From Vulcanimicrobiota bacterium (GTDB lineage Bacteria > Vulcanimicrobiota > Vulcanimicrobiia > Eremiobacterales > Eremiobacteraceae): a DNA stretch of 64,000 bases. The first letter of the stretch is position 1. Each line of letters starts with the position of its first letter. Under the pieces are notes generated by a model that was given only the letters and a program-made list of their open reading frames with translations, did no database searches and had not been told where the DNA came from. Both the position numbers and the translations under genes were made by a program. The stretch is from positions 384,001 to 448,000 of the forward strand of contig CAWDVP010000006.1 in assembly GCA_963805945.1 (NCBI GenBank), given 5' to 3'. Shown here one piece after another: positions 1 through 5,575 of this stretch.

Positions 1-527
1 GGAAGATGATGTGGCCCGGCACGCCGACGACGGTGCAGTTCGGCGGCACCGATTTCACCACGACGGCGCCCGCTGCGATCTTCGAGCCCGCGCCCGACGA
101 CGATCGCGCCGATGATGCCGGCGCCCGCGCCGACCACGACGTTGTTCTCGAGGGTCGGATGCCGCTTGCCGCGCTGCAGCGACGTGCCGCCAAGGGTCAC
201 GCCTTGATACAGCGTGCAGTTGCGGCCGATCTCCGCCGTCTCGCCGATGACGACGCCGGTGCCGTGATCGATGAAGAGCCCGCTGCCGATCTCCGCGCCC
301 GGGTGGATCTCGATGCCGGTGAGAAAACGCGACCAATTCGAGAGGACGCGCGGCAGCACGGGCACGTGCATGAGATAGAGCGGATGGATGACCAGCCGAT
401 GCCAGAACAGCGCATGGAAGCCGGGGTACGCGAGTAGCACCTCGAGCCCGTTGCGCGCCGCGGGGTCGCGCTCGAAGACCGCGCGCCAATCGAGGTGGAT
501 CTGCCGGAAAATCGAGTCTCGCTGCAT
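1..527 (-). CDS. cysE: Serine O-acetyltransferase (3' end runs off the window; one +1 frameshift near 93-95)
   Basis: Manual translation from ATG at 527: [40 protein letters not shown]...[32 protein letters not shown]...[10 protein letters not shown]...KRHPT. After one extra G it continues [33 protein letters not shown] upstream; gltX-cysE synteny. Not in the ORF track. Confidence 0.93.
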
Positions 528-534
528 GAGGGGT

Positions 535-615
535 GTCCTGCTAAGGGGCTTCTGGAGTGCGCGCAGCGGGCGCGCGACCGGTCGGGTGGGCGCCGGTCAA
601 CAACAACAGCAGGAC
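535..615 (-). promoter_or_regulatory. Anti-SD/SD pairing of a putative Cys-responsive translational attenuator
   Basis: Leader GUCCUGCU (615-608) is the exact reverse complement of AGCAGGAC (542-535), which contains the cysE SD. Confidence 0.65.
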
Positions 616-629
616 GAGGCGAGAGACAT
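597..629 (-). CDS. Putative polycysteine leader peptide MSLASSCCCC
   Basis: The minus strand reads ATG TCT CTC GCC TCG TCC TGC TGT TGT TGT TGA and ends 69 nt upstream of the cysE ATG. Confidence 0.8.
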   Translation of the reverse strand: MSLASSCCCC

Positions 630-671
630 GATGACAATGGGTTCGCGCGTGAGGCAGGGCCGCCCTTCGGG

Positions 672-2192
672 TCACGCTTGGGAGAGCGCCGAGCGGATGC
701 GTGAAGCCACCCGCGCCGGCCCGAGCAGCGGCAGCAGCAGCGGCAACTCGATGCCATGCTCCTCGCCCGTCACGGCGATGCGGATCGGGCGGAACAGCGC
801 GCGTCCTTTGACGCCGTGTTTCGCGCCGAGCGCAGCGAGCGCTTCCTTTGATGCGGCCTTGGTCAACGCGCCGCGGTCGGCGGACGCCTCCGCAATCGTC
901 GCAAGCTCTTCGACCAGCGCGCGCGCGACCGGACCGGCGAGCGCGTCCTTCGCGTCGGGCTCGATCGCCACATCGCTTGTGAGCAGCGCGGCGGCGAGCG
1001 CCGGCACCTGGCTCAGGATCTCCACGTGGTCGGTCAGCGCGTCTGCGAGCAGCGCCCGCCATTGCGGATCCTGCATATCCGCGCTCGCGGCGACGGTCGC
1101 GTCGCGGGCGGCCCACTGCGCGAACAGCGCGGCGCGCTCGTCACGTGGCAGCGAGCGCAGATAGTGCGCGTTGAACCAGCGCAGTTTGCCTTGGTCGAAC
1201 ACCGCCGGGCTCTTGCTGACCCGTTCGAGCGAGAAGTTCTCCGCTAGCTCGGAGAGGCTGAAGAACTCCCGGTCGTCGCCGGGCGACCAGCCGAGCAGCG
1301 CGAGATAGTTGATCATCGCGGCCGGCAGATAGCCTTGCTCGCGATACTCCGCGACCGACGTCGCGCCATGCCGCTTCGACAGCTTTTGATGGTCCGGCGC
1401 CAGGATCATCGACACGTGCGCGAAGAGCGGCAGCGGCAGCTCCAGCGCCTCATACAGCACGACCTGGCGCGGCGTGTTCGGCAGGTGTTCGTCGCCCCGG
1501 ATCACGTGCGTGATCGCCATCTCGGCGTCATCCACGACCGCGGCGAAGTTGTACGCCGGACCGCCGTCGGACTTCATGATCACGAAATCGCCGATCGATC
1601 CCGCGGGGAAATGCACGGAGCCGCGCACCACGTCTTCGACGAAGATGTCGCGCTCGGGCATGAGAAACCGCACGGCCGGTTTGCGGCCTTGCGCGTCGAG
1701 CGCGGCGCGCTGTTCGCGCGTCAGGTCGCGGCACGTGCCCGCGTAGCGCGGCGTCACGCCGGCGCGCTCCGCCGCCGCTCGCTGCGCCTCGAGCTCTTCA
1801 AGCGTGCAGTAGCAGAGGTATGCCCGCTCGCTCTCCAGCAGTCGCGCTGCCGCAAGACCATAGCGGTCGGTCCGATCGGTCTGACGGTACGGCGCGTACG
1901 GACCGCCGACATCGGTGCCCTCGTCCCACGACAGGCCGAGCCAGCGCAGATCGTCTTGGATCACCCGCTCCGATTCGAGCGACGAGCGCGCGGCGTCCGT
2001 GTCCTCCGATCGAAGCACCAACGCGCCGCCATTGCGGCGCGCGAAGAGATAATTGAAGAGCGCGGTGCGCGCGCCGCCCACATGGAGCGATCCGGTGGGT
2101 GCGGGAGCGAACCGGACGCGGACGGGACCCGAGCTTCGCTCGGGCACGGTCGAGTAAACTCGACCGCTCCATTCCGGGTTGCGCTCGGACAT
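672..2192 (-). CDS. gltX: Glutamate--tRNA ligase with a REP-derived N-terminal extension
   Basis: VRVRFAPAPTGSLHVGG (HIGH-like), KLSKR (KMSKS-like) and CYC Zn-site motifs. ATG at 2192 overlaps the ispF TGA. Confidence 0.95.
   Translation of the reverse strand: MSERNPEWSGRVYSTVPERSSGPVRVRFAPAPTGSLHVGGARTALFNYLFARRNGGALVLRSEDTDAARSSLESERVIQDDLRWLGLSWDEGTDVGGPYAPYRQTDRTDRYGLAAARLLESERAYLCYCTLEELEAQRAAAERAGVTPRYAGTCRDLTREQRAALDAQGRKPAVRFLMPERDIFVEDVVRGSVHFPAGSIGDFVIMKSDGGPAYNFAAVVDDAEMAITHVIRGDEHLPNTPRQVVLYEALELPLPLFAHVSMILAPDHQKLSKRHGATSVAEYREQGYLPAAMINYLALLGWSPGDDREFFSLSELAENFSLERVSKSPAVFDQGKLRWFNAHYLRSLPRDERAALFAQWAARDATVAASADMQDPQWRALLADALTDHVEILSQVPALAAALLTSDVAIEPDAKDALAGPVARALVEELATIAEASADRGALTKAASKEALAALGAKHGVKGRALFRPIRIAVTGEEHGIELPLLLPLLGPARVASRIRSALSQA
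2128..2171 (-). repeat. Two tandem REPs in the gltX 5' coding region
   Basis: Minus strand TGGAGCGGTCGAGTTTACTCGACCG-TG-CCCGAGCGAAGCTCGGG. Confidence 0.85.
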
Positions 2193-2665
2193 CACAGGTC
2201 TTCCACAGTGGCGACTGCGTACGCGGCCATGCCGTCGCCGCTGCCGGTGAAACCGAGCCCCTCAGTGCGTTTCGCTTTGACGCTGCAGCGATCGAGGTCG
2301 ACGCCGAGCACCCCCGCCAGCTTCGTGCGCATCGTTCCCAGATATGCAAGCAGCGCCGGCTGTTCGGCGACGATGGTGCAATCGACGTTGCCGACGCGGA
2401 AGCCCGCGGCTCGCACGATGACGACGGCCTCCCCGAGCAGTTTCACGCTGTCGGCGCCGGCGTAGCGCGGATCGCCCGCGGGGAAGCGCGAGCCGCAATC
2501 GCCGAGCGCGGCGGCCCCGAGCACCGCGTCGATGATCGCATGTGCGACCACGTCCGCGTCCGAGAAGCCTTCCAATCCGCGCTCGAACGGGATCCGGCAC
2601 CCGCCCAAGATGAGCGGCCGGCCCGGGACCAAGCGGTGGGCGTCAAAACCGAACCCGATCCTCAT
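2192..2665 (-). CDS. ispF: 2-C-methyl-D-erythritol 2,4-cyclodiphosphate synthase (possibly fused to IspD)
   Basis: [12 protein letters not shown]...[24 protein letters not shown]...[14 protein letters not shown]. Confidence 0.93.
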
Positions 2666-3356
2666 CGCCCCACCCTCTCCGACTGCGCGACGACGAAGCC
2701 GCGCGTACTCGAGGTCGTCCGGCGTGGTGATCTTCATGTTGTCGTATGTACCCATCACGAGTGCCACAGGCGCGACCGAGGCGCTCCACCAGCATGGCGT
2801 CGTCGGTCGCCGCCGGACCTGCGTCGCCGCCTTTGGCGTGCGCGGCGAGCAGCAGCTCGTAGGCGAACACCTGCGGCGTCTGCGCGGACCACAGCCCCTC
2901 GCGCGGTATGGTGTGCTCGATCGTGTCCGCCGGCGTCCCCTGCTTGATCGTGTCCTTCACGGGCACGGCGGCGATCGCGGCGCCGCTGCCGCGCGCCGCC
3001 GCCGCGACACGTTCGATCAGCTCGGGCGTGACGAACGGCCGGGCGCCGTCGTGCACGAGCACGTAGTCGGGGGCCGGTGCGATGGCCGACAGCGCGGCGT
3101 ACACGGAGGCTTGTCTGGTCGCGCCGCCGGCGACCACCGCGCGCGACTTGAGCGGCGCGAACGCCGCGGCGAGCGTTTGAAAGCGCTCGCGCTGCTCCTC
3201 TTCGCACGCGATGTAGATGCCGTCCACGCACGCCGCGCGCTCCAGCGTCTCAAGCGCCCATGCGGCGAGCGGCTTGCCGCCCAGATCGAGCAGCTGCTTG
3301 GCCTGGCCGAGCCGATCGCCGCGGCCGGCCGCCGCGAGGATGGCGACGAGCGTCAT
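2666..3356 (-). CDS. ispD: 2-C-methyl-D-erythritol 4-phosphate cytidylyltransferase (one frameshift near 2774)
   Basis: [57 protein letters not shown] follows in the next frame. ATG at 3356 overlaps the upstream TGA. Confidence 0.9.
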
Positions 3357-4410
3357 GGCTTCTTCGGCTTCGCGAAGATCATGCGCCCCGCCGCCGTCTG
3401 CAGCACCGAGGTGACCTGCACGCCGACGGTCTCGCCCATCAGCTTGCGGCCGTTCTCGACCACGATCATCGTGCCGTCGTCGAGATAACCGACGCCTTGG
3501 TTCTGCTCCTTGCCGTCCTTGACGATGTTGCACCGCCATCTCTTCGCCGGGCAGCACGACGGGCTTGATCGCGTTCGCCAATTCGTTGACGTTGAGGATG
3601 GTGACGCCTTGCAGTCTGGCGACGCGGTTGAGGTTGTAGTCGTTGGTGAGGATCGGCGCGTCCATCTGGCGGGCGAGGCGTGACGAGCTTGCTGTCGACG
3701 TCGCGCTCCGGCGCGTCCTGCTCGATGATCTCGAGCCGGCCGGACGCCTCGCGCAGCCGGTTGAGGATCTCGAGGCCCCTGCGGCCGCGCGCGCGGCGCA
3801 TCGAGTCGGCCGAATCGGCGATCAACTGCAGCTCCTTCAGCACGAACTTTGGCACGAGCAGGCGCCCCTCGATGAAGCCCGCCTGCACGACCTCGAGCAG
3901 GCGTCCGTCGACGATGACGGAGGTGTCGAGCAGCTTCGGCGGCGCTGCGCCGTCGTGCGGTCCGCTCTTCATCCAACTGCTCAAGCGCTGCCGCAGCCCG
4001 ATGCGGATGCCCGTGTAAGCGAAGAACAGCGTGATGAGCGCGTAGATGATCACCGAGATCAACGCGCCGAAACGCGGTATCTGTCGGACCGGCTGGAACA
4101 CGTCGCGAACGAGATAGGCGACGAGCAGCCCCACCACGAGACCGATCGCGCCGGAGAGCGCCTCGGCAGGCGCCATCTTCACGATCGCTTCTTCTAGGGA
4201 GCTCGAGATGCGTTCGAAGCCGGCGGCGACGAACGGCGACACCGCGATGCCGATAGCAGCGAAGAGCACGGGCAGGCCGATGTCGCGCAGCGGCGGCGTC
4301 ACGCCGAACTGAGCGAGCAAAGGCACGTGCTGCGCCAGCTCGATCCCCGCGGCCAAGCCGAGCAATCCGCACAACAGCGCGAAGATGATCCTAAGTAGTA
4401 ATCGTCCCAA
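3353..4410 (-). CDS. PIN/TRAM-domain membrane protein (YacL-like), with two +1 frameshifts near 3681 and 3530
   Basis: N-terminal TM helices; [36 protein letters not shown] and [20 protein letters not shown] are spread over three frames. TTG start at 4410 is inferred. Confidence 0.88.
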
Positions 4411-5575
4411 GACCGGCGGGGGCCGGTAAGAATGAAGGATGTAAGAATTCCGTGCACGCGGCGTTGGCCAGCAACCTGCCACGGGCGGTGAGCCGTACCC
4501 CCTGGCCGTCTGTTTCGAGCAAGCCCGCCTCGCGACATTTATTGATGGCGGGCGCGAAGATCGCCCTCGCGTCGAGCCCGAAGCGCACGCGGAAATCCCC
4601 GTCACGTATGCCTTCGCTCGTCCTCAAGGCGAGCATCGCCGCCTCGCCGACCCGTTCCGGGAATCCCAGCCGTTCCTCGTCTACCCGCGCCGACGCGCCG
4701 CGTTCGACGGCCTCGCAATACTCGTCGAAGCCGCGCGCGTTGCGATAGCGCACGCCGCGCTCGTAGCCGGACGCGGACATCCCGAGCGCGATGCACTCGC
4801 GCTGCTGCCAATAGCCGCGGTTGTGCTCGCTCTCGAAGCCGGGCTTGGCGAAATTCGATATCTCATAATGGGCGAACCCAGCGGCGGTGAGCGACTCTTC
4901 GGCGAGCTCCAGCAGATCGGCGGTCGCATCATCGTCGGGGAATTGTTGCGGCGCACGCCCGAACCAACGCGCGTACGGCGTGCCGGCCTCGATCGTGAGC
5001 CCGTACACGGAGACGTGCTGCGGCGCGCTCGCGATCGTCCGCTCGAGCGTATGCCGGAACGACGCCGGCGTCTGACCGGGCACGCCTGCGATCAGATCGA
5101 CGCCGATGTTGTCGTGGCCACCTGCGCGCGCCGCGCCGATGTACGCGTCTGCCTCGTCCGCGCTATGCTCGCGCCCAAGCCGGTGCAGTTCCCCGTCGTC
5201 GAACGATTGCACGCCGATCGACAGCCGCGTGACCCCCGCTTTGCGATACGCGACGAGATCGTCCGCGTTACGCGATGGATTGGCCTCAAGCGTGCACTCG
5301 ATGCTGCCGCGCTCGACGTCGAAACGCCGCTGGAGCGCGCCGAGCAGCTCGGCGATGCGCGCGGCGCCGAGCGCGGACGGTGTGCCGCCGCCGAGATAGA
5401 TCGTCCGGATCGACAGATCGGGCGCGGCCGCCCGCGCCAGTTCGCCATGCAACGCGCGCAGGTAGCGCTCGACTCGCGCATGCGCGTATCCGACGACCGC
5501 GAAATCGCAATACGGGCAGATGCGATCGCAGAACGGCAGGTGCACGTAGCAGCCGGCCGGCTGCGCGTCGTTCAC
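4391..5575 (-). CDS. hemW: Radical SAM heme chaperone HemW/HemN-like
   Basis: YVHLPFCDRICPYCDF (CxxxCxxC), GGGTPS, EANP, RLSIGVQSF, YEISNFA. GTG start overlaps the DegV stop. Confidence 0.88.
   Translation of the reverse strand: MNDAQPAGCYVHLPFCDRICPYCDFAVVGYAHARVERYLRALHGELARAAAPDLSIRTIYLGGGTPSALGAARIAELLGALQRRFDVERGSIECTLEANPSRNADDLVAYRKAGVTRLSIGVQSFDDGELHRLGREHSADEADAYIGAARAGGHDNIGVDLIAGVPGQTPASFRHTLERTIASAPQHVSVYGLTIEAGTPYARWFGRAPQQFPDDDATADLLELAEESLTAAGFAHYEISNFAKPGFESEHNRGYWQQRECIALGMSASGYERGVRYRNARGFDEYCEAVERGASARVDEERLGFPERVGEAAMLALRTSEGIRDGDFRVRFGLDARAIFAPAINKCREAGLLETDGQGVRLTARGRLLANAACTEFLHPSFLPAPAGLGTITT

Follow-up and report, generated by a model that had tools for sequence, protein, structure and literature searches.

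What is the ten-codon ORF, ending in four cysteine codons, that separates gltX from cysE in a member of the Vulcanimicrobiota, and does it gauge cysteine for the gene behind it? In Bacillus subtilis, the gltX-cysE interval carries a Cys T-box. A first-pass annotation of the window (the whole stretch of DNA analyzed here, 64,000 nucleotides) read the ORF as the leader of a cysteine-sensing attenuator, and we examined this reading in the source genome and in its relatives. On comparative sequence evidence, a real, family-wide regulatory leader precedes cysE. We consider it likely, though not certain, that this leader is a cysteine-responsive translational attenuator of cysE-cysS of the kind known from mycobacterial Ms5788A, and that it probably evolved independently.

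The leader ORF and its gene neighborhood

The ORF (MSLASSCCCC and a stop; 597..629, minus strand) reads ATG TCT CTC GCC TCG TCC TGC TGT TGT TGT TGA from 629 to 597. It begins 42 nt behind the gltX stop and ends 69 nt before the cysE ATG at 527, and its assignment as a predicted cysteine sensor draws on this sequence and on in-frame orthologues in relatives. All coordinates that the first-pass annotation had given for it were confirmed when the sequence was re-read. Nowhere else on either strand of the 2.3-Mb genome are four Cys codons followed by a stop. The annotation had also described the ORF as lacking a Shine-Dalgarno (SD) sequence and the interval as lacking a terminator; likewise, we found no SD-like sequence upstream of the leader ORF, and a scan of positions 400-1000 returned 0 terminator-like sites. 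An Rfam scan of window positions 1-5000 gave three weak matches, all below gathering scores and none on the leader.

Upstream lies gltX (672..2195, minus strand), encoding glutamate-tRNA ligase (TIGR00464, 505 bits, above cut-off). Downstream, cysE (1..527, minus strand), encoding serine O-acetyltransferase, runs past the window edge; its N-terminal 126 amino acids match TIGR01172 (E 2e-46, below the full-length cut-off). According to the genome translation, the order beyond the window is cysE, cysS, rlmB-like, sigH. SigH was identified by NCBIfam, while two of the genes are what we take, from protein motifs, to be cysS (cysteinyl-tRNA synthetase) and an rlmB-like methyltransferase. The cysE/cysS and cysS/rlmB junctions overlap, the cysS start lying about 20 nt inside the cysE end. 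Single frame breaks interrupt cysE (window about 85-100), cysS beyond the window and selD (G000:C2:536047-536977), and breaks of the same kind occur in the assemblies G044, G045 and G047. Because the cysE frame is open in close relatives, those in cysE, cysS and selD are probably assembly errors. SigH (G000:C6:380946-381533) and its orthologues score almost alike throughout the family (340-342 bits in each genome), which points to a protein of unusual invariance. A separate promoter-like site, TTGACG-17-TATAAT, serves the sigH gene, and behind the gene stands a strong hairpin with a T-rich tail; with such a site, a SigH feedback loop through the cysE operon would not be needed.

The leader seems to be a single copy. 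Among 23 short ATG frames of the source genome with at least three Cys in their last six codons, checked by eye, only the cysE leader resembles an intergenic leader of a cysteine gene. The 600 nt upstream of 30 cysK/CBS-like loci held no convincing leader, only two unconvincing out-of-frame ORFs, one locus lying at a contig end. On these two screens, a multi-locus Cys ribulon was not found. A phylum-wide pattern search, of a design that missed known family leaders, returned 10 other matches, whose strings resemble poly-Leu coding.

The leader among relatives

The family sample comprised all 32 genomes. Thirty were informative, the contigs of G004 and G019 ending too close to cysE; both retain GCAGGAC before that gene. 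We observed an intact, in-frame, Cys-ending leader before cysE in 26 of the 30, covering 8 of 10 genera; without G010, G013 and G016, which are flagged unpublished and also enter the pair, mask and motif counts, these figures become 24 of 27 genomes, with genus g5 lost. The expectations set earlier, that relatives retain the Cys run and that they keep its frame and not just its nucleotides, were thus borne out, the run staying in frame across 10 leader lengths (9, 10, 16, 20, 21, 22, 23, 24, 25 and 26 codons). Taking simply the first in-frame ATG, without presupposing a motif, leads to the same start in 25 of 26 leaders. The N-terminal part is not conserved and varies freely in length and sequence, whereas the Cys run adjoins the stop. 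The 26 intact leaders hold between 2 and 11 Cys each, some having 8-11, and end mostly in S-C-(R/C)-C-C-C, S-C-C-C or C-S-C. All 26 close with a TGA stop, preceded by TGT as last codon in 25. UGU accounts for 53 of the 119 leader Cys codons, compared to 617 of 5363 Cys codons genome-wide in a crude gene set of the source genome.

Departures from this pattern were few within the family. G044, whose assembly contains further frame breaks, retains the Cys run but has its ATG in another frame. In G011, where the gltX-cysE gap is only 17 nt, the leader is absent. In G013 and G020, the promoter motif described below and an ORF of 14 codons remain, yet this ORF holds 1 and 0 Cys, respectively, and AGGA is missing. 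These two genomes (loci L118 and L119) make up genus g8, which has lost both the Cys run and AGGA and has the most diverged CysE (65% identity); its locus is possibly a decayed or re-purposed switch. Insertions of 0.4-1.1 kb lie between gltX and the leader promoter at L003, L005 and L006 (G005, G003 and G001).

Beyond the family, all five genomes of family f3 carry a 17-codon variant ending in (C/S)-C-R-R-C-(S/K)-R, the 5' half of which pairs with a purine run before cysE. In family f2, the leader was found at 0 of 33 loci, one of which (L128) is a distant paralogue. Many f2 loci (e.g., L025, L120-L124, L136 and L138-L144) have instead, upstream of cysE, an AAC(C) and, about 15-17 nt on, a GGTT (11 of 33 by strict pattern, more by eye), often an inverted repeat with central TTGAC, directly followed by a TANNNT-like box, with the cysE start shortly after; this arrangement is a candidate operator or different promoter class. 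At 22 cysE loci from outside the class, the stretch searched held no convincing leader; most of these loci encode a long CysE whose true upstream region lies beyond that stretch. All seven metagenome matches to the leader pattern lie between gltX and cysE, three being duplicates of loci already in the set, and locus L031 (Candidatus Eremiobacteraceae bacterium, of a family assigned to Vulcanimicrobiota by NCBI) has the same leader type.

Pairing between the leader and the cysE ribosome-binding site

The first-pass annotation had claimed that the leader is complementary to the cysE SD region, with one G-U pair in addition. This was confirmed from the sequence: GTCCTGCT (615-608) is complementary to AGCAGGAC (542-535), G607-T543 adds the G-U pair, and the resulting helix P1 closes the predicted fold. 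The 5' arm, or anti-SD strand (607..615, minus strand), lies on the Ser6-Cys7 codons, as drawn from the fold, the pair table and the pair counts on alignment A2. The 3' arm (535..543, minus strand) holds the cysE SD core AGGA 8 nt before the ATG, placed by the 16S 3' end, which in the source genome ends in CACCTCCTTTCT, and by the count of GC before AGGA.

To count pairs among relatives, we used a table of 24 rows anchored on the AGGA before cysE, leaving out five rows without AGGA; its four core pairs were demanded by the search itself. In 23 of 23 intact leaders with AGGA, a Cys codon begins with the very U that faces the first A of this core. GC stands directly before AGGA in 24 of 24 leader rows, compared to 10 of 173 other starts with AGGA genome-wide, and since the 16S tail would favor AA at this place, the constraint does not come from the SD itself. 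The inner flanking pair is C-G in 12 rows (genera g2, g5, g7 and g9), U-A in 7 (g1, g3 and g4) and U-G in 2, while 3 rows have no pair here; where it is C-G, the Cys codon mostly becomes Arg (in one case His). At the outer flanking pair we counted G-C in 7 rows, C-G in 4, A-U in 3, wobble in 2 and no pair in 8, and the columns beyond it are paired in just 3-7 of 24. Overall, P1 measures 7-10 bp in 23 of 26 intact leaders; AGGA is missing in three (G023, G008 and G015). The anti-SD covariation that was to be sought in relatives thus appears as double-sided changes at both flanking pairs.

Alignment A2 comprised 22 rows, with g3, g8 and g10 left out; its inner flanking pair is gapped in 9 of 22 rows and was consequently counted by script. 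On this alignment, 96.3% of cells are paired versus 92.5% after shuffling and the covariation score was matched by 0 of 500 shuffles, figures that are inflated by the relatedness of the genomes, the genera not being separated in the CysE tree. Only one pair with a double change appears on A2, because of the gaps at the inner pair. Given the core pairs required by the search, the relatedness of the genomes and the CysE tree, no more than about three independent compensatory events may be counted, at least one at the inner flanking pair and two at the outer one. Own-site pairing is better than 90% of 141 control sites in only 15 of 26 leaders and lies barely above the control median in three (G008, G012 and G015). 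In the source genome, 25 of the 141 control ribosome-binding sites pair equally well with the ORF tail.

Predicted fold and computed ribosome masking

P1 closes both the minimum-energy and the centroid folds of 640-520, around hairpins P2 and P3. P2 (576..598, minus strand) begins in the stop codon, and a hairpin of different sequence is predicted at the same place in most relatives; behind it, the source genome has 0 T in 9 nt and no U-tract. P3 (559..575, minus strand; GCGCGC-CCGCT-GCGCGC), drawn from the fold and alignment A2, is seen within the genus only. The z-scores of four leader-containing folds of the source genome range from -1.4 to -1.7 and are not significant alone. Structure from the source genome by itself is weak evidence, and the support comes from the relatives.

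Folding with the leader masked had been proposed as a check. We forced a 28-nt ribosome footprint to be unpaired and computed the cost of opening the cysE site, a test that is partly circular. In the source genome, this cost falls from 10.5 kcal/mol on the free RNA to 3.5-4.7 kcal/mol with the ribosome on the Cys codons, which agrees with the proposal. Across 26 leaders, the median drop is 3.8-5.0 kcal/mol with the A site at codons -8 to 0 from the stop, and below 0.5 kcal/mol at -16 to -11 and at +3 to +7. A drop of more than 2 kcal/mol was obtained in 19-22 of 26 leaders at -8 to 0, in 1-4 of 24 at -16 to -11 and in 2-3 of 26 at +3 to +7. Four of the 26 genomes (G014, G016, G022 and G012) showed no drop in this test, and G023 and G015 only a partial one. 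Because a ribosome on the stop codon opens the cysE site too, the output would depend on dwell time, which is the variable in the mycobacterial model as well.

A SigH-type promoter motif and predicted leader translation

A SigH-type promoter motif, which the first-pass annotation had missed, is newly found before the leader. Its predicted -35 box (AGGG; 663..666, minus strand) was recognized as part of a motif common to the leaders and enriched genome-wide. The predicted -10 box (GAA; 642..644, minus strand) stands 12 nt before the leader ATG, as judged from the A at -13 and the Clostridioides difficile SigH table; it implies an untranslated stretch of about 0-4 nt, provided that the strings of that table end at the transcription start site. 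Mapped C. difficile SigH promoters match the leader motif, and the strings tabulated there mostly end 9-12 nt after GAA (PMC7438776). Among the intact leaders, AGG(A/G)-17..19 nt-GAA-11..14 nt-ATG is present in 20 of 26, with near-variants in the other six. Even when no motif is presupposed, 24 of 26 leaders show an A at position -13. The motif is kept 12 nt before the ATG even when the gltX-leader gap is 405, 615 or 1079 nt, two of these three having variant -35 boxes. SigH itself scored above cut-off in 39 of 41 relatives.

Before gene starts of the source genome, the motif occurs 39 times, versus 6-15 times in 19 control spacing classes; at distances 9-14, the count is 25 in a set with one start per gene. 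It lies 8-15 nt before the ATG at 38-39 gene starts on seven contigs, which suggests a sizeable set of near-leaderless SigH genes. What we presume, from protein motifs, to be uvrB-, tsf-, icd- and valS-like starts are among them. A SigH-type promoter this close to the leader ATG would explain how the leader could be translated without an SD, and a near-leaderless SigH transcript is the likely source of that translation. The leader ATG follows the gltX stop by only 12-17 nt in 14 genomes, where re-initiation after gltX could contribute as well.

Proposed mechanism and alternative explanations

Seen directly are the ORF, its conservation and frame, the complementarity with its covariation, the promoter-like motif and the absence of T-boxes. 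From these we propose the following sequence of events for the whole element, about 140 nt long. Transcription by SigH-RNA polymerase would begin some 0-4 nt ahead of the leader AUG, and ribosomes would translate the leader without an SD. When Cys-tRNA is plentiful, the ribosome would finish and leave, the 8-9-bp P1 would close over GCAGGAC and cysE initiation would be blocked. When Cys-tRNA is scarce, the ribosome would dwell on the UGC/UGU run, P1 could not form and cysE would be translated; cysS would probably follow, via coupling or Rho polarity. A more far-reaching reading, which we advance tentatively and would not quite call probable, is that of a two-input gate invented independently in the Vulcanimicrobiota: a Spo0H-type sigma factor would supply the near-leaderless transcript, a ribosome on the Cys run with its invariant UGU-UGA end would determine whether CysE and CysS are both made, and the whole would serve, in a lineage without T-boxes, in place of the Cys T-box that Bacillota have at this locus.

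The leader might instead sense cysteine and act mainly on transcription, ribosome release letting P2 with a U/C-rich tail, or Rho, stop RNA polymerase before cysE. Rho scored above cut-off in 26 of 32 family genomes, the source genome included, and most leaders have a predicted hairpin that begins at the stop codon or directly after it, with at least five T in the next 9 nt behind P2 in 9 of 26 (genera g2, g7 and g9). Precedents for each route have been reported: a Cys leader with a terminator is described before the cysS gene of Rhodobacterales (uORFC-8-2; PMC8632094), and Rho is proposed for actinobacterial cys leaders (PMC1262725). However, the source genome and its genus have 0-2 T behind P2 and no terminator-like site, the spacer is only 55-100 nt, largely structured and with a C/G ratio near 1 in most genomes, and action on transcription would leave the conserved, covarying SD pairing unexplained. 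We therefore regard it as unlikely as the main mode, while termination may form a second layer in g2, g7 and g9. A classical leader-peptide transcription attenuator ranks low for want of an intrinsic terminator, with 0 terminator-like sites and a U-tail in just 9 of 26 leaders.

Less likely still is an ORF that is translated without gauging cysteine, either with ribosomes unwinding P1 steadily (translational coupling) or with the Cys-rich peptide as the product, for example a metal binder. In favor of these versions, the site is opened no less by ribosomes at the stop codon than by those on the Cys run, the leaders richest in Cys (8-11) might suit a binder, and the short gltX-leader distance in 14 genomes would allow re-initiation. 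Against both versions, the N-terminal part is free in length and sequence while the Cys run stays beside the stop, Cys-to-Arg changes that keep the pairing are tolerated, and the downstream genes are cysteine genes. So does the enrichment of UGU and its place as last codon in 25 of 26 leaders speak against them: the source genome has a single GCA tRNA-Cys, so that UGU would be a candidate for slower decoding. Synonymous codons can differ in their sensitivity to starvation (PMC3862929), and by analogy this precedent may bear on the UGU excess. The least probable of the alternatives, to which we give very little credence, has the invariant UGA read as selenocysteine, so that the leader would report selenium or the S/Se balance. 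The uniform TGA stop (26 of 26 leaders versus 586 of 1357 stops in the source genome) fits it, as do a tRNA-Sec and a UGA-containing selD in the source genome and selA in 31 of 32 family genomes. Yet a bacterial SECIS-like loop, modeled as an apical loop with G in its first two positions, 16-37 nt from the UGA (PMC13188914), is found in only 2 of 26 leaders, whereas the selD of the source genome has one. Read-through would extend the leaders by 0 to more than 40 unrelated codons, and relative to cysE these fall in each of the three frames, with no frame conserved. Family f3 has CGA at the UGA position, and the conservation of the stop can be accounted for by its GA, which is paired at the foot of P2. 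The selD gene itself (G000:C2:536666-536977, minus strand) contains a TGA in its frame and, about 33 nt further on, a hairpin with a GGU loop. Taken with these alternatives, cysteine-responsive translational attenuation of cysE-cysS is the reading that we retain.

Comparison with known systems

Mycobacteria are the only case found in the literature in which cysteine-sensing translational attenuation has been shown experimentally. For Ms5788A, it was established with start-codon, frameshift and compensatory mutants that the next SD becomes free when a ribosome occupies the poly-Cys tract (10.1101/834739). As the accessible account describes it, Ms5788A shares several features with the leader studied here: a short ORF without SD at the head of the transcript (here predicted), consecutive Cys codons beside the stop, Cys-coding RNA that pairs with the SD region of the next gene, and no terminator. 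The target genes are cysteine-related in both cases, mycobacterial Rv2334A preceding cysK1-cysE. Judged by what characterizes this type, a Cys-clustered short ORF stands upstream of cysteine genes, here cysE-cysS, and the pairing of its Cys-coding RNA with the next SD is present in 23 of 26 intact leaders. Set against the same account, the two differ in phylum (Vulcanimicrobiota versus mycobacteria) and in the helix, which is compact here (8-9 bp at one Ser-Cys junction), unlike the long duplex over eight Cys codons in Ms5788A. Moreover, the present leader targets cysE-cysS within a Bacillota-type gltX-cysE-cysS-rlmB-sigH cluster, has a SigH-type promoter motif, and was seen in one convincing copy, with no multi-locus ribulon. 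Compared with Table 3 of PMC7438776, that motif follows the SigH (Spo0H) pattern AGG(A/G/T), about 17-19 nt, GAA, strictly in 20 of 26 leaders and as variants in six.

Other leaders stand further off. The uORFC-8-2 element before Rhodobacterales cysS is likewise an upstream ORF with tandem Cys codons controlling cysteinyl-tRNA synthetase; as outlined in PMC8632094, it differs by its U-tract terminator (transcription attenuation), by having two Cys at positions 14-15 and by the dominance of UGC. The LEU element of actinobacterial leuA, in the description of PMC1262725, responds to leucine, contains a conserved pseudoknot and belongs to Actinobacteria. In the Bacteroidota, L076 (Ancylomarina), L082 and L103 carry short ORFs located 340-470 nt ahead of the cysE match. 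These ORFs contain Cys runs, end in CCCCCCTSCC, CCACCCTP and CNFCCCCGLI, respectively, and are followed by a hairpin and a T-rich stretch; by their sequence, they are probably Cys leader attenuators. A description of a cysE leader element in Eremiobacterota was not found in the literature, of which subscription journals and supplements may hold a prediction, and the main text of PMC11109978 makes no mention of cysteine, cysE, cysS or cysK.

The attenuation mechanism itself is thus already known, and the leader here differs in phylum, target, compact helix and promoter. If our reading is true, a compact, covarying example in another phylum means that the same device has evolved again. Among relatives, the number of Cys codons ranges naturally from 2 to 11 and loss-of-function states occur as well, and the leader gives a first handle on the role of a highly conserved SigH in a mostly uncultured lineage.

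The closest parallel by position is the Cys T-box (RF00230) of Bacillota cysES, which occupies the same gltX-cysE site and reads the same predicted signal, uncharged tRNA-Cys; according to PMC2940859, it differs by binding the tRNA directly and by controlling termination. RF00230 had no match in window positions 1-5000 and was found in 0 of 32 family genomes, while our control locus L032 from Desulfosporosinus has the order gltX-T-box-cysE with a score of 110 bits, in agreement with PMC2940859. Of the earlier claim that a ribosome-mediated sensor replaces a T-box in the same synteny, the functional sense alone is retained, given these T-box counts and the Bacillota arrangement. If the leader works as proposed, then at a locus where Bacillota use a T-box, two unrelated RNA devices read the same signal for the same genes.
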